Assembly (NCBI GenBank): GCA_050249415.1
Contig: JBFWQO010000003.1
Location: 22,814-86,813 of the forward strand
DNA from: Steroidobacteraceae bacterium
Lineage (GTDB): Bacteria; Pseudomonadota; Gammaproteobacteria; Steroidobacterales; Steroidobacteraceae
Reading direction: 5' to 3'
Length of the DNA stretch: 64,000 bases
Every line of letters starts with the position of its first letter. The first letter of the stretch is position 1. The notes beneath the pieces were generated by a model that saw nothing but the letters and a program-made list of their open reading frames with translations, did not search any database and had not been told where the DNA came from. The position numbers and the translations under genes are program-made. Shown piece by piece: positions 54,125-64,000 of the stretch.

Positions 54125-54142
54125 TGGAGCGGGAAACGAGAC
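54125..54142 (-). repeat. Orphan 18-nt copy of the 3' end of tRNA-Gly(GCC); att-type boundary repeat of the ICE
   Basis: The minus strand reads GTCTCGTTTCCCGCTCCA, which equals the last 18 nt of E. coli-type tRNA-Gly(GCC) (...GAGTTCGAGTCTCGTTTCCCGCTCCA). The bases 5' of it (CCTAGTAAAC) do not continue a tRNA. It lies 18 nt upstream of the tRNA-Cys 5' end. Confidence 0.8.
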
Positions 54143-55746: not shown

Positions 55747-55789
55747 GGTCACGCCAACAAACGCCACTGAGCGTTCAGGAGTGACCGCC

Positions 55790-56002
55790 ATGTCGCAAAC
55801 ACCTGTACTGCAACCAAACGAGCGCCGCATCCTGCGCCTGGAAGAAGTGGAAGCGAAGTCCGGCTTCAAGCGTGCCCACATCTACAACCTGATGAAGAAG
55901 CGCCAGTTCCCGCAAGCGCTGCGCTTGGGTGTGCGCGCGGTCGGCTGGGATTCCATCGAGATCGATCAGTGGATCGCCGAGCGCGTCAACAACCGGGCCT
56001 GA
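55790..56002 (+). CDS. alpA: AlpA-family (phage/ICE) transcriptional regulator
   Basis: RILRLEEVEAKSGFKRAHIYNLMKKRQFPQALRLGVRAVGWDSIEIDQWI. AGGAG SD 8 nt upstream of the ATG at 55790. Confidence 0.85.
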   Translation: MSQTPVLQPNERRILRLEEVEAKSGFKRAHIYNLMKKRQFPQALRLGVRAVGWDSIEIDQWIAERVNNRA

Positions 56003-56044: not shown

Positions 56045-56920
56045 ATGCAGGTTGTATCCATCATTTCCACGAAAGGTGGCGTCGGCAAGACCACCACGGC
56101 AGCGAACCTGGGCGGACTCATCGCCGACGCGGGGCTGCGCGTGCTGCTGCTCGATCTCGACGTGCAGCCCACCTTGTCGTCCTACTACGAGTTGGCTCAC
56201 CGCGCGCTTGGAGGCATCTATGAGCTGCTGGCCTTCAACGAGCGCGACCTCGGCCAGCTCGTGTCCCGCACGACCGTCGCCGGCCTGGACCTGGTGCTGT
56301 CCAACGACCACCGCGGCGAGCTGAACACCTTGCTGCTGCACGCGCCGGACGGGCGTCTGCGGCTGCGGCACCTGCTGCCCGTGCTGGCACCCATCTACGA
56401 CCTGGTGCTGATCGACACCCAGGGCGCGCGCTCGGTGATGTTGGAGATGGCGGTGCTCGCCTCCGATATCGCGCTGTCGCCCGTGACCCCGGAAATTCTC
56501 GCCGCCCGCGAACTGCGACGCGGCACCATGCAGTTGCTCGAAGACATCGCGCCGTACCGGCATCTCGGCATCGAGCCGCCACCGCTGCACCTGCTCATCA
56601 ACCGCGTCCACCCCGTGTCGGCGAACGCCCGGCTGATTCAGCAGGCCCTGCGCGACCTGTTCCAAGACCACGCCGGCATCCGCGTGCTGACCACCGACGT
56701 GCCGGCCATCGAAGCCTATCCGCGCGCCGCAACGCGCGGCCTGCCGGTACACCGCGTCGAGTATCGCCAGCCGCCGGGCAGAGTCGCCCCCGCTGCGATC
56801 GACACCATGCGCAGCCTCGCCAGCGAATTGTTCCCGCAGTGGCAGCACCGATTTGCCACGGTATCCGGCCGCCCGCCATTTCCTCTTGATACCGGGAGGC
56901 CTCATGGCGAACGCACATGA
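56045..56920 (+). CDS. parA: ParA-family partition ATPase
   Basis: Deviant Walker A: VVSIISTKGGVGKTTTAANLG. LLLDLDVQ, LIDTQG. Confidence 0.9.
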   Translation: MQVVSIISTKGGVGKTTTAANLGGLIADAGLRVLLLDLDVQPTLSSYYELAHRALGGIYELLAFNERDLGQLVSRTTVAGLDLVLSNDHRGELNTLLLHAPDGRLRLRHLLPVLAPIYDLVLIDTQGARSVMLEMAVLASDIALSPVTPEILAARELRRGTMQLLEDIAPYRHLGIEPPPLHLLINRVHPVSANARLIQQALRDLFQDHAGIRVLTTDVPAIEAYPRAATRGLPVHRVEYRQPPGRVAPAAIDTMRSLASELFPQWQHRFATVSGRPPFPLDTGRPHGERT

Positions 56921-57152
56921 ACTGGCCCGAGGCCACCAGCGGCTGCGCGCCCTGATCGAGTTCGCAGTCGGCGAGGGCTGGCACGTCAAGCGCACGCCAG
57001 GCGGCCACCTCAAATTCACCAAGGCAGGTTGCGCCGCGATCTACACCAGTTCGACGGCCAGCGACCACCGCGCGTCCCTCAACGCCCGTGCGCAGATCCG
57101 CCGCGCCGAACGCGAGACCCGCCCTCCTGCACAGGGACGCAGTCATGGCTGA
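56904..57152 (+). CDS. Small HicA-like-fold protein nested between parA and the parB-like gene (position of shi in ICEclc)
   Basis: 82 aa. EGWHVKRTPGGHLKFTKAGCAAIYTSSTASDHRA resembles the HicA G-x-x-x-x-R-x-x-GSH-x-x-F core. Overlaps the parA 3' end by 17 nt and the parB-like start by 8 nt. Confidence 0.5.
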   Translation: MANAHELARGHQRLRALIEFAVGEGWHVKRTPGGHLKFTKAGCAAIYTSSTASDHRASLNARAQIRRAERETRPPAQGRSHG

Positions 57153-58779
57153 GCTGACCTCCCAGCAGATGGCCGGCAAGCTGCTTGCGGCCGGGTTCGA
57201 GCGCAGCGGCTCGTCTGCCTCGACTCTGAGCGACCCCATCGCCGACACGCCCATGGTCGTGACCCTGGATCAGTTGCGTCCCTACGACCATGACCCGCGC
57301 AAGAAGCGAAATCCGACCTACGAGGACATCAAGGCTTCCATCCGCGAGCGCGGCCTGGACGCGGCACCGGCCATCACGCGTCGGCCGGGCGAGGACCACT
57401 ACATCATCCGCAACGGTGGCAACACGCGCCTGGCGATCCTGCGCGAACTGTGGTCGGAGACCAAGGACGAGCAGTTTTTCCGCCTCTCGTGCCTGTTCCG
57501 CCCGTGGCCCAGCCGCGGCGAAGTCGTCATGCTGACCGGCCATCTGGCCGAAAACGAATTGCGCGGCGGCCTCACGTTCATCGAACGCGCCCTTGGCGTC
57601 GAGAAAGCGCGCGAGTTCTACGAGCAGGAAAGCAGCACCACCCTGAGCCAATCCGAGTTGGCCCGACGCCTCGCCGCCGATGGTTTCCCGGTCCAGCAGT
57701 CGCACATCAGCCGCATGAACGATGCGGTGCGCTACCTCCTACCGGCGATCCCCGCCGTGCTCTATGGCGGCCTCGGCCGCCACCAGGTCGAACGCCTGTC
57801 GGTCATGCGCAAAGCCTGCCTGCTCGCGTGGGAGCGCTACGCCAAGGGCCGCACGCTGGTACAGGACTTCGACGACTTCTTTCAGGAGGTGCTGTCGCAG
57901 TTCGACGCGCAGGCCGGCGAGTTCGCCCCCCAGCGCGTGCAGGACGAGCTGATCGGCCAAATGTCCGAGTTGCTCGGCATCGACTACGACGTGCTGGCGC
58001 TCGACCTCACCGAATCCGAAAGCCGCCATCGCGCCCTGGTCAGCGACCCGACCCCGCCATCGGCACCGCCCGCGCTGCCCGAGCCGGGCGCCATGGCACG
58101 CCCGCCCGCCGCACCAGCCCCAGCGACCCCGACGCCGGCGGCCACGCATGGGGCGCGTGAGCGCAAGGGCGATTCGGAAACGGACGACTCGCCTGCAGTC
58201 AGCCCCGTGGCTGCTCCTGGTGATCTGCTGCAGGAGCACATCGTTTCGCCCGCACCGACGACGGAACGGCTGCAATCCATTCAGCGGATGGTCGCCGACG
58301 AGCTGGGGGATGCGCTGCCCGATTTTTCGGCCAACGTCTTGCAGTCCATTCCTGTCCAGGCAGGCGGGCTCTATCCGATTTCCGACGTTTGGCACATCGA
58401 CGCGGGCTTGGACACGCCCGACCGCCTGCGCATCCACATCGCGCAGTTTGCACGCGAGATCGCGGGCGAGGCAGGCCTCGATCAGTGCATCGAGGACCGC
58501 GCGGACGGTATTGGTTTCGCATGCCATGCCGGCGCCCGTGCCCCGGCGCCGCTGGGTCGTGCCGCCCTGGCGCTGCTGGCGTGCCTGGCTGGTCAGCAGC
58601 CCGCCGAAGTCGGCCTGAACAGCGGGCAAGTCGTCATCGACCTGCCGGCGCTGCTTCACGGACAGGGGGACGCAAGCCGGCGTCTAAGCGACACCGCATT
58701 GGTCAAGCTGTTCCGGCTGCTGCGCCTGGCCCGCCGTCTGCTCGACTTGGACGCCAGCGCTGTGGACCTTGGAACGTGA
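57145..58779 (+). CDS. ICE ParB-family protein (ParB/Srx N-terminal domain; BisD-position gene)
   Basis: VTLDQLRPYDHDPR, IIRNGGNTRLAILREL (ParB box GGxxR). Long Pro/Ala-rich linker and a C-terminal domain of unknown fold. Confidence 0.8.
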   Translation: MAELTSQQMAGKLLAAGFERSGSSASTLSDPIADTPMVVTLDQLRPYDHDPRKKRNPTYEDIKASIRERGLDAAPAITRRPGEDHYIIRNGGNTRLAILRELWSETKDEQFFRLSCLFRPWPSRGEVVMLTGHLAENELRGGLTFIERALGVEKAREFYEQESSTTLSQSELARRLAADGFPVQQSHISRMNDAVRYLLPAIPAVLYGGLGRHQVERLSVMRKACLLAWERYAKGRTLVQDFDDFFQEVLSQFDAQAGEFAPQRVQDELIGQMSELLGIDYDVLALDLTESESRHRALVSDPTPPSAPPALPEPGAMARPPAAPAPATPTPAATHGARERKGDSETDDSPAVSPVAAPGDLLQEHIVSPAPTTERLQSIQRMVADELGDALPDFSANVLQSIPVQAGGLYPISDVWHIDAGLDTPDRLRIHIAQFAREIAGEAGLDQCIEDRADGIGFACHAGARAPAPLGRAALALLACLAGQQPAEVGLNSGQVVIDLPALLHGQGDASRRLSDTALVKLFRLLRLARRLLDLDASAVDLGT

Positions 58780-58794
58780 CTGAGGGAGACCAGC

Positions 58795-59355
58795 ATGTCC
58801 ACACCACACCCACTCAACCAGGCTGTCATCGCCCAAGCTCTCTATGACCTGCGCAATGGGCAACTGCGCCGCTGCAAGCTGATGGGGTTTGGCGAGGAAG
58901 AGCTGGGCGCCCTCAAGCATCCCGCGCTGATCAGCGTGCTGGCTAACGCCAGCGTCTCGTGGTGCTCCGTGACGGTCAACCGCGAAGTACTCCGGCGTCT
59001 GCTCAGGCAGGCGCAGGACGTGGAAAAGGAAATCGCCACGGTCGATCGCATGCTTAGGCTGGGCGCGAGCACCGAAATGGTGAGCCGTTTCTACGGCCTG
59101 ACCCACCAGGAAGTGGCGCTTCGCCGCGAAATCCTCGGCCTGCCCAAGCGCAAGGGCCGCCATCCCGTGCTGGACGAGAAGCAGGACACGGAGCTGTGGC
59201 AGCAATGGAAGGCCGTGACCAGCAGCAGGAACGTCGATCTCGAAGACGAGACCTCCATCCTCGATGCCGCCATGGACTTGGCTGAAGGCATGTCGCTGCC
59301 TTTATCGGTGGTCTGGGCCTCGATCAAGAGCTGGGTCGATCAGGGATTGGGTTGA
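58795..59355 (+). CDS. DUF2857-like ICE protein (BisC-position gene)
   Basis: 186 aa. Matches my memory of the DUF2857 family that follows ICE parB genes (LYDLRNGQLRRCKLMGFGEEELGAL...RFYGLTHQEVALRREILGL). Confidence 0.65.
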   Translation: MSTPHPLNQAVIAQALYDLRNGQLRRCKLMGFGEEELGALKHPALISVLANASVSWCSVTVNREVLRRLLRQAQDVEKEIATVDRMLRLGASTEMVSRFYGLTHQEVALRREILGLPKRKGRHPVLDEKQDTELWQQWKAVTSSRNVDLEDETSILDAAMDLAEGMSLPLSVVWASIKSWVDQGLG

Positions 59356-59357
59356 CC

Positions 59358-60605
59358 ATGGCCGTGGACGACACCGCACCACGTCGTGGCCCCATCGCAC
59401 TCGCAGACCTGTTCGACGCTGCGCTGAAAAACCTTGTGCCCAAGCCCAACGCCGACGCGCCCCCGCCCACACCCACGCCTGTCGCGATGCCCACGGGCCC
59501 GGCGTCTGGCGATGCCTTCCTGTTCAGCGGCAACCGGCACGAGTCCGTACCGCGGCGGCTGTTCCTCGACCGTCGCCTGACGCCGTTGGAGCGCAACGCC
59601 TGGCAGGTCTTCCGGCTGATGCAGGGCGACGATGGCGTGACGGCGTTCCCGACGTATGAACAGCTTCGGCCCTGGCTGGCCTCGATGCCCTGCGCCGGAC
59701 AGGCCTCGCACGAAACCGTGGCGCGAGCGCTGACGCTGCTGCGCCTGACCCGCTGGCTGAGCCTCGTGCGGCGGCGACGCGACCCCAAGAGTGGCCGCAT
59801 CCTCGGCAATCTGTACGTGCTACACGACGAACCACTGACCCCGTTCGAGGCCATGCAGCTCGACCCGGACTACCTGCAACTCGTCAGCCAGGCGCTCGGC
59901 CATTCCGCCAAGGCCGTGCAGATCGTGGGCCTGCACACCCTCAAGGAAATCGGCCAAGACCCGATGCTGGCCGGGCGCACCCTGCCGTCGAGGCTGCAAG
60001 TCCTGGCCGAACGCCTCGCCAGCCAGGGCGTCGGGGCGCACGAAAGTTATCCACAGGAGGACGCCACGCACGATTCCGAAGAAGGGGCGACGAGCCTTCT
60101 TTGGAATCCCGATGACCCCACTTCGGAATCCGAAGCAGGGCCGAAACCCGCGCCAGACGCCTCTCTTCGGAATCCGAAGCAGGCCCGTACAGTACGTAGT
60201 AGTCGTATTGATGAAGTACGTACTACCGCGCAGGCGCGCGTGCTGGACGACCTGCAATGGCCCAAGCGCTTCGCGGAACTGAAGGCAGAGCAGCAAACAG
60301 GTGCCAGAGTGGCATTGCAGCAAGTCGATGTTTCGCTCAGGCAGGCCGTGCTGGACGAATGGGCCACGCGATGCAGCAACCACGGCATCCGCAATCCTGC
60401 GGGGTATCTGTTCGGCATCATCCAGCGGGCCATCCATGGCGAGTTCAACGCCTGGGCCAAGAAAGACGCACCCTCGGCACCTGTCCCGCCAAACGAGCGG
60501 CCACCACCAGCGGCACCACCACCTCAACCGCAGGGCAAGCCTGTGCCGCCAGAAGTCGCCAGGCAGCACATCGAGCGGCTACGCAAGCTGCTCGCCAGCA
60601 AGTGA
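59358..60605 (+). CDS. STY4528-family pathogenicity-island/ICE putative replication protein
   Basis: PRRLFLDRRLTPLERNAWQVFRLM... winged-helix-like N-domain. Low-complexity middle. Pro-rich C-terminus. Family assignment from memory and synteny. Confidence 0.6.
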   Translation: MAVDDTAPRRGPIALADLFDAALKNLVPKPNADAPPPTPTPVAMPTGPASGDAFLFSGNRHESVPRRLFLDRRLTPLERNAWQVFRLMQGDDGVTAFPTYEQLRPWLASMPCAGQASHETVARALTLLRLTRWLSLVRRRRDPKSGRILGNLYVLHDEPLTPFEAMQLDPDYLQLVSQALGHSAKAVQIVGLHTLKEIGQDPMLAGRTLPSRLQVLAERLASQGVGAHESYPQEDATHDSEEGATSLLWNPDDPTSESEAGPKPAPDASLRNPKQARTVRSSRIDEVRTTAQARVLDDLQWPKRFAELKAEQQTGARVALQQVDVSLRQAVLDEWATRCSNHGIRNPAGYLFGIIQRAIHGEFNAWAKKDAPSAPVPPNERPPPAAPPPQPQGKPVPPEVARQHIERLRKLLASK

Positions 60606-60649: not shown

Positions 60650-60672
60650 GAGCTATCCCCTGGGGATAGTTC
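60650..60672. repeat. 23-bp palindrome, copy 1 (one arm mismatch)
   Basis: GAGCTATCCCCTGGGGATAGTTC. Starts 44 nt after the stop of the STY4528-like gene. Confidence 0.9.
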
Positions 60673-60780
60673 CACTGACGGCTACGACGTCGAACCGCTG
60701 CACGCCGGGCCTGGATCGCCTGCCGCGGATCGGCCTTGTCCGCGCTGATCCGGGTGTGCAGCGTTCCTTGGCGCTCCATG

Positions 60781-60803
60781 GAGCTATCCCCAGGGGATAG
60801 CTC
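60781..60803. repeat. 23-bp perfect palindrome, copy 2
   Basis: GAGCTATCCCCAGGGGATAGCTC. Ends 117 nt upstream of the TIGR03761-like gene start. Confidence 0.9.
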
Positions 60804-60920
60804 GCGCCACATGCAACCACCGCGCCCTGAACCGGGGACGGGCGGGTTTCGGTTTGTTGACTGACTGCCTTCCGCTTCTTGCCGAAGCTGGCCGCTCTTT
60901 TCCAACAACGAGCGGACACC

Positions 60921-61703
60921 ATGGCAACGACCAATGAACCCTTGCAACTGAATCTCGGCTCCTTGCGCAGCGCGATGTCGCTGACGCTGCACACGCATCA
61001 CGCCTCGCGCATCTGGCACGGCCGCGCCGCTGCCGAGGGGCGACCCGGCATCGTCGGCTTGAACGGCTACATCGCCCAGATGAACAAGATGCGGCGCGGC
61101 TCGGAGCAGGATGACCCGTACAGCGATTTCTGGACGCTGCGCATCGAGGACAAGCTCGACCAGACCAAGGCCACGCTGCAATCGCTGCGCGAACAGGTGG
61201 ACCAGGCACTCGCGAGCGTTCCGCCGGCACTGACCCTGGGCGAAAACCTTAACGTGCAACCCGTCAAGCTGCCGCTGTTCGTCAATGCGCAGTTGGGCTT
61301 TGCCGCCGTCTATCTGTTGGCCGACTACGACGACATTGCCCGCAAGCTGATCCTCGCGCATCACACCGCACTCATCGACCGCAGCACTTTGGAGCGTTGG
61401 CTCAACGAGGGCGCGCACGCACTGCGCAGTCTTTTCAGCCTGGCGCAGCAGTACCGCTACTCGGGCTGCACCCGCGACGACTTCGCGGCGAAGAACGCTG
61501 CAGCTCGGGCCGCACTGGAAAAATTCGGCGAACTGCCGCAGGACGTGCTGGAAGGCACGCGCCGCTCGAAGTTCGCGCCGCCCACCGTGCGCCGTGGCCT
61601 GCAGCTGCGCAGTGACGGTCCTGCCGCGGCACCTTCCCCCAGCGACGAGGCCGCCACCACGGAGGCCCCCGAAGCGACGGGCGGCGAGGACGCGCAGGCA
61701 TGA
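60921..61703 (+). CDS. PFL_4669/TIGR03761-like ICE protein (InrR-position gene)
   Basis: MATTNEPLQLNLGSLRSAMSLTLHTHHASRIWHGR... Family recalled from ICE synteny, upstream of DUF3158-ssb-topB. Confidence 0.6.
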   Translation: MATTNEPLQLNLGSLRSAMSLTLHTHHASRIWHGRAAAEGRPGIVGLNGYIAQMNKMRRGSEQDDPYSDFWTLRIEDKLDQTKATLQSLREQVDQALASVPPALTLGENLNVQPVKLPLFVNAQLGFAAVYLLADYDDIARKLILAHHTALIDRSTLERWLNEGAHALRSLFSLAQQYRYSGCTRDDFAAKNAAARAALEKFGELPQDVLEGTRRSKFAPPTVRRGLQLRSDGPAAAPSPSDEAATTEAPEATGGEDAQA

Positions 61704-62227
61704 GCGATCCGAACCGCGACACCCGCTACTTCCACCCCCTGCAACAGACAGCTTTCATGAAGCTGGAACATGCCGCCTCTCTAAAAGGCCTTTTGAAGCC
61801 TTTTAAGGGTAAGGGGGATCTTGAGGCTTGGGCCAGCCAGTGCTTCGGCATGCGCGACGAGTTGATTGCCCTGGCGCAGCGTCAGGTGCTGCAACAGGCC
61901 CTCGGGCATCCCTTCCACCTGCTGCCCATCGAACTGGCCCAGCAGACCACTGGCGCAGGCACGGCGTTTCTGCGCTGGCGCAAGCACGACCGCTCGGCCA
62001 TGGGCGTCACCTTGTGGCAAGAGCTGATGGCGAGCACCAGCACGCCGGTCAACCTGCTGGCCGACCTGCACGCCATCGAGCTTCAGCGCATTACGCTGAA
62101 CATGCAGATCAGCCTGTTGCACACCTTGGGCAGGCAGGCCCAGGAGTGCGCCAGCAAGGCCGCCGAGGCGGAAGACGCCTACCTGCGCCGGCTCAAGTCC
62201 ACGCCAGCCGCCATGCGTGATCGGTGA
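61700..62227 (+). CDS. DUF3158-like ICE protein
   Basis: 175 aa. Its ATG overlaps the preceding stop. Synteny between the TIGR03761-like gene and ssb. Confidence 0.55.
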   Translation: MSDPNRDTRYFHPLQQTAFMKLEHAASLKGLLKPFKGKGDLEAWASQCFGMRDELIALAQRQVLQQALGHPFHLLPIELAQQTTGAGTAFLRWRKHDRSAMGVTLWQELMASTSTPVNLLADLHAIELQRITLNMQISLLHTLGRQAQECASKAAEAEDAYLRRLKSTPAAMRDR

Positions 62228-62300
62228 TCGCGCCGGGCAACCCAGCACGCGCCCGCCACCGACCAGGTGCGGGTATTTCAACCACCACGGAGATTGCAAC

Positions 62301-62753
62301 ATGAGCACGCATTTTTCTGGCGAGGGCAACATCGGTTCGCCCCCCGAGTACCGGGAGTTCCCCAACGGCAACGACGAGCCCAGCCGCCTTTTGCGCCTGA
62401 ACGTCTATTTCGACAACCCCATTCCCAAGAAGGATGGCAGCTTCGAGGACCGCGGCGGCTTCTGGGCGCCGGTGGAAGTCTGGCACCGCGACGCCGCGCA
62501 CTGGAAGGACCTGTACCAGAAAGGCATGCGTGTCCTGGTCGTCGGCCGCATGGAGCGCGAACCCTGGACGGACAACGAGGATCAGCCGCGCGAGACCTGG
62601 CAGATCAACGCGCGCAGCGTCGGCATCCTGCCGTTCCGCATCGAGTCCGTGACCCTCAGCCCCAGGCAGCAGGAGACCACGCAGGACACGCAGCCGAATC
62701 CCCAGGCCGCCCAGGAACCGGCAGCGCCGAAGGAGCCGAAGCGCAGGAAGTGA
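62301..62753 (+). CDS. ssb: ICE single-stranded DNA-binding protein (OB fold) lacking the acidic C-terminal tip
   Basis: FSGEGNIGSPPEYREFPNG...FWAPVEVWHRDAAHWKDLYQKGMRVLVVGRMEREPWTD...TWQINARSVG. The tail is Gln/Pro-rich and ends KEPKRRK. Confidence 0.8.
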   Translation: MSTHFSGEGNIGSPPEYREFPNGNDEPSRLLRLNVYFDNPIPKKDGSFEDRGGFWAPVEVWHRDAAHWKDLYQKGMRVLVVGRMEREPWTDNEDQPRETWQINARSVGILPFRIESVTLSPRQQETTQDTQPNPQAAQEPAAPKEPKRRK

Positions 62754-62799
62754 GCCGGCATGGGGCGGCGGCAGTTGTCCGTCGCCCCAATGCCTTCGC

Positions 62800-62822
62800 G
62801 AGCTATCCCCAGGGGATAGCTC
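62800..62822. repeat. 23-bp perfect palindrome, copy 3
   Basis: GAGCTATCCCCAGGGGATAGCTC. Starts 46 nt after the ssb stop and ends 205 nt upstream of topB. Its 3-nt flanks (cgc/cat) are the inverse of those of copy 2 (atg/gcg). Confidence 0.9.
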
Positions 62823-63027
62823 CATCAACGTCCACCGGCTTCCACGCACTCCCGAAAATCGCGGCTCCCGGCCCGCACACCTCCGGCCGCACGCCACTCC
62901 CGTCCCCGCCATTCCATCCCGTGAAAGTGGTCGCCACCGCATGCGGCTTGTTTGCTGCTGCCCCTGGTGGTGCTCGGCATCCTCGATTCCAGCAACTCAA
63001 TGAACCACGGAATTCGGATGGACGGAC

Positions 63028-64000
63028 ATGCGGCTGTTCTTGTGCGAGAAGCCCTCCCAGGGCAAAGACATTGGTCGAATCCTCGGCGCGACGCAGCGCG
63101 GTGAAGGCTGTCTCAGCGGCTCCGGCGTCACCGTTACCTGGTGCATCGGCCATCTCGTAGAAGCGGCAGCTCCCGAGGTCTATGACGCAGCGCTCAAGCG
63201 CTGGTCGCTGGAGCAGTTGCCCATCGTTCCCCAGCAGTGGCGGGTCGAGGTCAAACCGAAGACCGCCACGCAATTCAAGGTCGTCAAGGCGCTTCTGGCG
63301 AAGGCGACCCATCTGGTCATCGCCACCGATGCCGACCGCGAGGGCGAGCTGATCGCCCGCGAGATCATCGACCTGTGCGGCTACCGCGGCCCCATCGAGC
63401 GGCTATGGCTGTCGGCGCTCAACGATGCCTCGATCCGTACCGCGCTCGGCAAGCTGCGGCCGTCGTCCGACACGCTGCCGATGTACTACTCGGCACTGGC
63501 GCGCTCACGGGCGGACTGGCTCGTGGGCATGAACCTCAGCCGGTTGTTCACCGTGCTGGGCCGGCAGGCAGGCTACGACGGCGTGCTGTCGGTCGGGCGC
63601 GTCCAGACGCCGACGCTCAAACTCGTCGTGGACCGCGACCGCGAGATCGCGGCCTTCAAGTCGGTGCCGTTCTGGGCCATCGACGTGTCCCTTTCCGCAG
63701 GCGGACAGACTTTCAGCGCGCAGTGGGTTCCGCCCGATGGCTGCACCGACGACGCCGGCCGCTGCCTGCAGCAGCCCATCGCCCAGCAGGCCGCGCAGCA
63801 GATCCGCACTGCGGGTAGCGCCCAGGTGGTATCGGTCGAGACCGAACGCGTGCGCGAAGGCCCACCGCTGCTGTTCGATCTGGGCACCTTGCAGGAGGTT
63901 TGTTCCAAGCAGCTTGGGCTGGACGTGCAGGAGACCCTGGAGATCGCCCAGGCCCTGTACGAGACGCACAAGGCCACCACATACCCACGCTCAGATTCCG
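63028..64000 (+). CDS. topB: DNA topoisomerase III (3' end beyond the window)
   Basis: Own translation of frame 1 from the ATG at 63028. It is absent from the ORF track because no stop occurs in the window. MRLFLCEKPSQGKDI (TOPRIM), IATDADREGELIA, GRVQTPTLKLVVDRDREI. Confidence 0.9.
   Translation, partial: MRLFLCEKPSQGKDIGRILGATQRGEGCLSGSGVTVTWCIGHLVEAAAPEVYDAALKRWSLEQLPIVPQQWRVEVKPKTATQFKVVKALLAKATHLVIATDADREGELIAREIIDLCGYRGPIERLWLSALNDASIRTALGKLRPSSDTLPMYYSALARSRADWLVGMNLSRLFTVLGRQAGYDGVLSVGRVQTPTLKLVVDRDREIAAFKSVPFWAIDVSLSAGGQTFSAQWVPPDGCTDDAGRCLQQPIAQQAAQQIRTAGSAQVVSVETERVREGPPLLFDLGTLQEVCSKQLGLDVQETLEIAQALYETHKATTYPRSDS

Follow-up and report, generated by a model that had tools for sequence, protein, structure and literature searches.

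The closest described counterpart of the locus analysed here is ICEclc (Pseudomonas knackmussii B13 / P. putida), for which Antar et al. (Nucleic Acids Res 2025, PMC12409273) defined bisS, GAGCTATCCCCnGGGGATAGCTC, an 11-bp inverted repeat with a 1-nt centre. ICEclc contains two bisS copies, one at inrR and one at ssb with 2 kb between them, which load the ParB-like CTPase clamp BisD; once loaded, BisD slides over approximately 50 kb and, together with BisC (a DUF2857 protein), activates the transfer-competence promoters (PMC12409273). The same study demonstrated a ChIP-seq maximum of BisD at both sites, the formation of mCherry-BisD foci on either cloned site (bisS-1 or bisS-2) in a host lacking the ICE, the stimulation of CTP hydrolysis by BisD with 40-bp bisS-1 DNA, and the binding of BisC to a different, 15-nt motif at promoters (PMC12409273). 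BisD-bisS constitutes the master step committing ICEclc-type elements to conjugative transfer, and these elements spread genes for catabolism, metal resistance and drug efflux among Beta- and Gammaproteobacteria.

We showed that the window (the whole stretch of 64,000 nucleotides analysed) contains three copies of a 23-bp palindrome whose perfect form, GAGCTATCCCCAGGGGATAGCTC, is equal letter for letter to the published bisS. They are very probably parS-like loading sites of the BisD protein, whose gene lies 2-4 kb upstream within the same ICEclc-family element. The palindromes are thus real and already explained by the publication of bisS, and they introduce no new principle. The features of the region are as follows:

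54125 to 54140, no strand assigned: att repeat TGGAGCGGGAAACGAG, the integrase-distal end of the ICE
55781 to 56002, plus strand: AlpA-family regulator (PF05930, E 3e-22)
56045 to 56920, plus strand: ParA-like ATPase, upstream of bisD (domain and family profile matches)
57142 to 58779, plus strand: BisD orthologue, ParB-like CTPase clamp and co-activator (TIGR03764, 395 bits)
58795 to 59355, plus strand: BisC orthologue, DUF2857 (PF11198, E 1.3e-62)
59352 to 60605, plus strand: STY4528-family protein, homologue of orf96323 (NF040582, 401 bits)
60650 to 60672, no strand assigned: bisS-like site A (copy 1), GAGCTATCCCCTGGGGATAGTTC, slightly degenerate, 17-bp core intact
60781 to 60803, no strand assigned: bisS-1 equivalent (copy 2), perfect palindrome GAGCTATCCCCAGGGGATAGCTC, 118 nt upstream of the inrR-like ATG
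60922 to 61703, plus strand: InrR-like protein (TIGR03761 / Pfam AcaB), first gene 3' of bisS-1
61700 to 62227, plus strand: DUF3158 protein (domain profile match)
62302 to 62753, plus strand: ICE single-strand DNA-binding protein, ssb (domain and family profile matches)
62761 to 62789, plus strand: GC-rich hairpin between the ssb stop and bisS-2, an element separate from bisS
62800 to 62822, no strand assigned: bisS-2 equivalent (copy 3), perfect palindrome GAGCTATCCCCAGGGGATAGCTC, 205 nt upstream of topB
63028 to 64000, plus strand: 5' part of the topoisomerase III gene topB, first gene 3' of bisS-2, in the position of ICEclc orf91884

The resulting gene order is alpA-parA-(shi)-TIGR03764 ParB-DUF2857-STY4528-[A,B]-TIGR03761-DUF3158-ssb-[C]-topB, with the palindromes in brackets. 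The probable start of bisD is the ATG at 57142, within a longest ORF beginning at 57088, and the ATG of the inrR-like gene is backed by alignment conservation. The second copy of the att repeat is formed by the 3' end of a tRNA-Gly gene (C3:168424).

Every detail observed in the initial annotation was borne out when the sequence was read again. Copies 2 and 3 are identical perfect palindromes, whereas copy 1 has T as the centre base and a single arm mismatch (T instead of C at position 21). All three are intergenic: copy 1 starts 44 nt past the stop codon of the STY4528-family gene (60605) and 131 nt, start to start, from copy 2, while copy 3 starts 46 nt past the ssb stop codon (62753). The bisS-1 and bisS-2 equivalents, separated by 2019 bp, flank the inrR-DUF3158-ssb block, and their 3-nt flanks are mutually inverted (atg...gcg versus cgc...cat), a relation which also holds family-wide. 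A long hairpin is present between copies 1 and 2; it is kept only by the closest subfamily and is missing from ICEclc-LB400.

A search of the 3.58-Mb genome (17 contigs), with up to 3 mismatches allowed, returned three palindromes in total, all within 2.2 kb, and the 11-mer half-sites were likewise confined to them; in 100 dinucleotide-preserving shuffles the number of matches was zero. All three (3/3) lie in the regulatory end of the 91.5-kb ICEclc-family element and none on the host chromosome. The pattern search proposed in the initial annotation therefore revealed an ICE-restricted motif, and not the genome-wide scatter at REP-like frequency which would have disconnected it from the ICE.

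The cognate protein is encoded in the same window. BisD is 81% identical to its counterpart from ICEclc-LB400 (550 aa), and both motifs of the CTP pocket are intact: GNTR corresponds to GxxR, with the equivalent of R95, and ENELR to ENxxR. The Pfam ParBc model gave no match to this protein, and NCBIfam TIGR03764 calls BisD a ParB family protein. AlphaFold (AF2) produced a poor model of the N-terminal half (pLDDT 60.5, with an alignment of 17 low-diversity sequences); Foldseek comparison of this poor model gave Noc 7nfu_A as the best match (prob 0.99, E 0.02), along with the ParB structures 5k5d and 7bnr, none of them at E <= 0.001. A PDB sequence search with BisD returned only spurious low-complexity matches to Crk. 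Since Pfam is silent and all structure matches have E > 0.001, the ParB likeness of BisD rests on TIGR03764, the two motifs and the published work.

The conservation of the sites was examined in two comparative sets, comprising 80 loci picked by BisD homology alone and 119 loci picked by the motif alone. At least two sites were found in the STY4528-inrR interval of 70/71 BisD-selected loci, and one site in the ssb-topB interval of 59/63; no site was detected outside these two intervals in the 1.1 Mb scanned for this set. Conversely, the ICE module genes were present in all 119 motif-selected loci. Across approximately 200 sites, the 17-bp core CTATCCCCNGGGGATAG is 100% invariant, and this extends to loci in which the identity of BisD drops to 45%. 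Changes in the outer 3 bp are not compensated, and the pattern as a whole fits a protein-recognition site. The bisS-1 and bisS-2 sites form a conserved inverted pair extending over 29 bp (ATG[23]GCG versus CGC[23]CAT).

A counterpart of site A was identified 130-133 or 141-143 bp upstream of bisS-1 in 70/71 BisD-selected loci. In ICEclc-LB400, described as nearly identical to ICEclc (PMC6050381), it has the sequence GAGCTATCCCCAGGGGATAGATG and is located 142 bp upstream of bisS-1. Site A is a family-conserved third bisS-like site which is unmentioned in the bisS paper (PMC12409273), and is a small addition to the published picture. For ICEclc this claim rests on ICEclc-LB400, because a 42-nt query with the LB400 site A matched LB400 only. 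Some relatives have arrays of 3-5 sites; in loci L023 and L031 the array, of up to 5 sites within about 400 bp, follows directly on the STY4528 gene. It is conceivable, albeit on balance doubtful, that these extra intact-core sites 131-143 bp upstream, the 3-5-site arrays and the 29-bp inverted pair together represent a conserved multi-site bisS architecture. Copy 1 may be a working site in the window as well. Should the additional site and the asymmetric flanks have a function, they could serve to tune the amount of BisD loaded or bias the direction in which BisD exits.

The mechanism that we propose for this element is transferred from the experiments on ICEclc, by analogy with which BisD would bind the palindromes, load on them and activate transcription. 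In a few cells, a bistable switch would activate the alpA-parA-shi-bisD-bisC operon; the palindrome (core CTATCCCCNGGGGATAG) would then be recognised by dimers of BisD, which would bind CTP, form closed clamps and slide into the element, mainly in the direction of transcription. BisC would be pre-bound at promoters, where the arriving BisD clamps would permit transcription of the transfer-competence genes, and the nearest targets would be the promoters of inrR and topB, directly 3' of bisS-1 and bisS-2. A BisC box or late-promoter motif was sought in the 91.5-kb ICE with k-mers like the conserved block 3' of bisS-1, and no clear recurrence was seen; the motif TTGTT..CTG.CTGCC, common to the inrR and topB upstream regions, gave about 23 loose matches in the ICE where about 7.6 would be expected, an unconvincing excess. 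The idea that the palindromes serve the ParB-domain/DUF2857 activator at late promoters agrees with the published mechanism in that BisD co-activates BisC-bound promoters, but BisC has its own, different motif, which makes the palindromes loading sites and not operators in the classical sense. Combined with the other early proposal, of parS-like sites for the ICE ParB-like protein, this idea is essentially right as a description of the published mechanism.

The parS proposal holds as far as parS-like BisD loading sites are concerned (PMC12409273); a ParA-driven centromere would be a further, hypothetical role. In such a partition system, BisD on the palindromes would be moved by ParA to segregate the excised, replicating ICE, and activation would be secondary. 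The parA gene is indeed placed directly 5' of bisD, the clustered palindromes resemble parS arrays (with the clusters of up to five sites mentioned above), and the bisS authors propose a second, “ICE-DNA clamping” purpose. However, ParA and Shi of ICEclc are linked to cell-division arrest rather than to partition, the BisD-R95A variant loses promoter activation and transfer, and ParA-dependent segregation is unreported in the literature. The sequence itself has no features separating a partition role from activation, and we consider partition unlikely as the main role.

A role of the palindromes in RNA is far less probable still. As hairpins in the STY4528 and ssb operon transcripts they could stabilise 3' ends, serve as processing sites or terminate transcription, which would suit the location of copies 1 and 3 shortly after stop codons and the predicted 10-bp stem (copy 1: -31.7 kcal/mol, z = -4.3). 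Against this, copy 2 precedes a gene instead of trailing one, and the absence of a U-tract, already recorded in the initial annotation, was confirmed by a terminator scan, which was blank at all three copies, and by reading of the flanks, which have no T-run. In addition, the changes at the outer pairs of the otherwise invariant palindrome are mostly mismatches, whereas the GC-rich hairpin at 62761-62789, which already fills the post-ssb position, changes in sequence yet keeps its pairing, as expected of a structural RNA element. The lack of a U-tract and of covariation, together with the covarying hairpin next to the palindrome, led us to reject a reading as terminators or RNA stabilisers, so that the early proposal of RNA hairpins is not supported.

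Equally improbable is a function as iteron-like origin sites to which the STY4528-family protein, a “pathogenicity island replication protein” according to the NCBIfam family name, would bind. The sites start directly after the STY4528 gene in every subfamily, reaching five copies in L023 and L031, but they are palindromes at irregular 87-143-bp spacing, unlike close direct iterons, and one of them lies 2 kb away, after ssb. Moreover, in the published experiments BisD alone makes foci on cloned bisS in the ICE-free host, and it is the CTPase activity of purified BisD that is stimulated by bisS DNA (PMC12409273). A dispersed REP- or MITE-like palindrome unrelated to the ICE, for which the palindromic form alone would speak, hardly deserves consideration and was ruled out, because the whole-genome and half-site searches give only the three ICE copies, and because the motif is placed beside the same ICE genes in all 199 loci of other genomes.

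The recognition of bisS sites at this locus leads to the correct annotation of the switch of this element. Beyond the published two-site picture, our analysis adds the invariant 17-bp core, a third conserved site and the inverted 29-bp pair, and the comparative data provide a simple sequence signature for locating the regulatory end of such ICEs.

Compared with known systems, the locus is closest to ICEclc, which has the identical 23 bp in the same places, before inrR and after ssb at a distance of about 2 kb, and shares the upstream genes (parA-shi-bisD-bisC-orf96323) and the restriction of the sites to the ICE; the differences concern the host, the ICE cargo and the BisD protein, which is 81% rather than 100% identical. 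ICEclc-LB400 (L152) has the same gene order, with sites 2009 bp apart versus 2019 bp in the window. The ParB-CTP clamps of chromosomes and plasmids (for example ParB-parS of Bacillus subtilis and Noc-NBS) share the palindromic loading site, the sliding of a CTP-binding, ParB-like dimer, the adjacent parA and clustering. However, parS is a 16-bp sequence, TGTTNCACGTGAAACA, unrelated to the 23-bp bisS with its 11-bp arms; unlike ParB, BisD has an extra C-terminal activator domain, requires BisC and escapes the Pfam ParBc model, and its reported output is the activation of transcription over approximately 50 kb and not segregation. The bisS authors themselves drew a comparison with KorB-OB and KorA of plasmid RK2 (PMC12409273), in which a ParB-family CTPase loading at palindromic operators also controls distant promoters together with a partner; in contrast to KorAB, which represses over hundreds of bp, BisDC activates over tens of kb.

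Re-reading of the sequence bore out the three 23-bp palindromes of the initial annotation at the coordinates listed below, together with their surroundings: copy 1 begins 44 nt past the stop codon of the STY4528-family gene, copy 2 lies 131 nt from copy 1, copy 3 begins 46 nt past the ssb stop codon, and copy 2 is flanked by atg/gcg, copy 3 by cgc/cat.

Gene order from Pfam and NCBIfam profile matches, with the palindromes from a pattern search (window coordinates)
55781-56002, + strand, AlpA
56045-56920, + strand, ParA-like ATPase
57088/57142-58779, + strand, TIGR03764 "ICE ParB family" protein (BisD-like)
58795-59355, + strand, DUF2857 protein (BisC)
59352-60605, + strand, STY4528 family
60650-60672, copy 1 (site A), GAGCTATCCCCTGGGGATAGTTC, T at the centre and a single arm change
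60781-60803, copy 2 (site B, bisS-1), GAGCTATCCCCAGGGGATAGCTC, perfect palindrome
60922-61703, + strand, TIGR03761/Pfam AcaB, InrR position
61700-62227, + strand, DUF3158
62302-62753, + strand, SSB
62800-62822, copy 3 (site C, bisS-2), GAGCTATCCCCAGGGGATAGCTC, perfect and identical to copy 2
from 63028, + strand, topoisomerase III (topB)

The limits of the element, about 91.5 kb apart, are given by a 16-nt repeat, TGGAGCGGGAAACGAG, found at 54125 of the window and again at the 3' end of a tRNA-Gly gene (position 168424 of the contig). Only the integrase-distal 9.9 kb of the element falls inside the window, and the palindromes are located 6.5-8.7 kb from that end.

A full-text literature search with the palindrome sequence matched only one study (Antar, Carraro, Budny, Gruber and van der Meer, Nucleic Acids Res 2025; PMC12409273) and its preprint. 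The palindrome is the same, letter for letter, as the site named there bisS-1 and bisS-2, and on this sequence identity it is bisS, the parS-like loading site of the CTPase clamp BisD; a 2026 paper already treats "bisS boxes" as established. According to PMC12409273, either cloned site was enough for mCherry-BisD foci in ICE-free P. putida, and BisD ChIP-seq had maxima at both sites with signal extending about 50 kb into ICEclc. Purified BisD bound CTP, whose hydrolysis was stimulated by 40-bp bisS-1 DNA, and with the GxxR mutant R95A, nucleotide binding, activation of promoters and transfer were all abolished. Sharp ChIP peaks of BisC (DUF2857) marked 11 transfer-competence promoters, where the motif is a different one, of 15 nt. 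The initial annotation had proposed parS-like sites and, separately, operators for a ParB-domain/DUF2857 activator; both ideas hold in substance, merged into this one published mechanism.

The protein partner is present as well. A search of the BisD-like protein against one genome per species gave 301 relatives, including the Paraburkholderia xenovorans LB400 locus (L152), whose ICEclc-LB400 is described as nearly identical to ICEclc-B13 (PMC6050381). Several features of this locus agree with PMC12409273: the frame read from its ATG encodes 550 aa, the ICEclc BisD length reported there, bisS-1 and bisS-2 are separated by 2009 bp, and the "bisS-3" candidate discussed below is present. The window protein shares 81% identity with this BisD. 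Its GxxR motif is IIRNGGNTRLAIL, with the arginine corresponding to R95, and its ENxxR motif is HLAENELRGG. Likeness to ParB rests on TIGR03764, these two motifs and the published work, because direct membership tests were weak: Pfam ParBc did not match, and modelling the N-terminal 313 residues with AlphaFold gave a poor structure (pLDDT 60.5), with Noc 7nfu_A, a ParB-family CTPase, as best Foldseek match (prob 0.99, E 0.02), ParB 5k5d and 7bnr also among the best and none at E <= 0.001. The longest open reading frame begins with a GTG codon at 57088; judged from an alignment with the 550-aa LB400 protein, the more likely start is ATG 57142 (545 aa). An 82-aa frame at the shi position (56904-57152) overlaps the 57088-57142 stretch.

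RNA hairpins, the third proposal of the initial annotation, were rejected. Each palindrome is predicted to fold as RNA, but no terminator-like site was called at the three copies, none is followed by a U-tract, and the core does not vary, as would suit a protein-recognition sequence. A GC-rich hairpin at 62761-62789 (TGGGGCGGCGG...CCGTCGCCCCA), between the ssb stop codon and bisS-2, is a more plausible 3' structural element: its letters differ among related ICEs with pairing kept (GGGGCGGCGG/CCGTCGCCCC versus GGAGGGCGGC/GCCGCCCTCC versus GCAGGGTGGCGG/CCGCTCTGC), and it is probably a structure at the 3' end of a transcript, or a terminator-like element, separate from bisS. REP-like dispersal, which by the initial annotation's own criterion would have spoken against a link with the ICE, was also rejected: the pattern (up to three mismatches) matched exactly three times in the window, in 0 of 100 dinucleotide-preserving shuffles and nowhere else in the 3.58-Mb genome (17 contigs), where the 11-mer half-site has no further occurrence either.

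Two independent samples define the family-wide pattern. The exact 23-mer, scanned over a genome collection with no part played by BisD homology, occurred in at least 119 stretches, belonging to over 45 beta- and gammaproteobacterial genera, with ICE-type module genes adjoining it in 119/119 of the matches listed. Two short contigs with exact bisS and ICE genes, from bins labelled Verrucomicrobia and Chloroflexota, are probably mis-binned proteobacterial ICE DNA. In the best 80 of the 301 loci, picked by BisD homology only, any 17-bp core with no more than one mismatch counted as a site. At least two sites, spaced 130-133 or 141-143 bp, separate STY4528 and inrR in 70 of the 71 loci having both genes (two in 63, three in 7), one separates ssb and topB in 59/63, and no site was found at other locations in 1.1 Mb. 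All three positions share an invariant core, CTATCCCCNGGGGATAG; the three base pairs outside it do vary, mostly with loss of complementarity.

Copy 1 is, from this comparison, a conserved third site at a fixed position and no chance degenerate copy. Its ICEclc-LB400 counterpart, GAGCTATCCCCAGGGGATAGATG, lies 142 bp upstream of bisS-1; PMC12409273 reported two sites only, with 1-kb ChIP bins, too coarse to split sites 142 bp apart. Among more distant relatives the core is also kept in a subfamily whose BisD is about 64% identical, where an insert of about 1 kb separates sites A and B, and in two Pseudomonas loci with BisD about 45% identical (L023 and L031), where five sites fall within about 400 bp directly after STY4528. 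These bisS-like arrays (L023 3606-4005, L031 4961-5360) have a spacing of 87-105 bp, and inrR and ssb homologues were not detected within the 8-kb block. In the three-site loci (7/71 ICEs; L123, L126, L127, L135 and others), spaced at 132 bp, the spacers are near-copies of one another: the arrays expand through tandem duplication of a spacer-plus-site unit of 132 bp. The STY4528-family gene contains two copies of a 15-bp palindrome, CTTCGGAATCCGAAG, at a spacing of 44 bp (60121-60135 and 60165-60179), and the orf96323 homologue of ICEclc-LB400 contains the two copies at unchanged spacing (L152 10059 and 10103); this is the "bisS-3" candidate, which BisD did not bind (PMC12409273).

Taken with their 3-nt flanks, bisS-1 (60778-60806) and bisS-2 (62797-62825) are inverted relative to each other across 29 bp, ATG[23]GCG versus CGC[23]CAT. 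The inverted flanks noticed in the initial annotation recur family-wide: bisS-1 matches the reverse complement of bisS-2 at 5-6 of 6 flanking bases in 30 of 37 distinct site triplets, against 0/6 in direct orientation in 33 of 37, counts that are not independent events because the sequences share descent. The centre base is inverted too, bisS-1 preferring T and bisS-2 A.

We infer the mechanism for this element from ICEclc. Activation of the alpA-parA-shi-bisD-bisC operon would lead to loading of BisD at the bisS sites; the loaded protein would clamp with CTP, slide along the core genes in their + strand direction and co-activate promoters bound by BisC. The inrR ATG is 118 nt downstream of bisS-1, and topB, at the position of ICEclc P91884, the first promoter reached (PMC12409273), is 205 nt downstream of bisS-2; both downstream regions are strongly conserved. 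A BisC motif was sought in this element, and none could be defined. Two similar sequences, TTGTTGACTGACTGCC (60854-60869) and TTGTTTGCTGCTGCC (62948-62962), lie in strongly conserved blocks, 60-80 nt ahead of the start codons of inrR and topB, and may represent a shared late-promoter element; the remainder of the ICE showed no convincing enrichment of such a motif.

To conclude, the palindromes represent a known feature. What the comparison adds on bisS is worth a line to specialists: the third site, the invariant 17-bp core, the inverted 29-bp pair and the arrays are minor extensions of the published picture, and no new kind of system.
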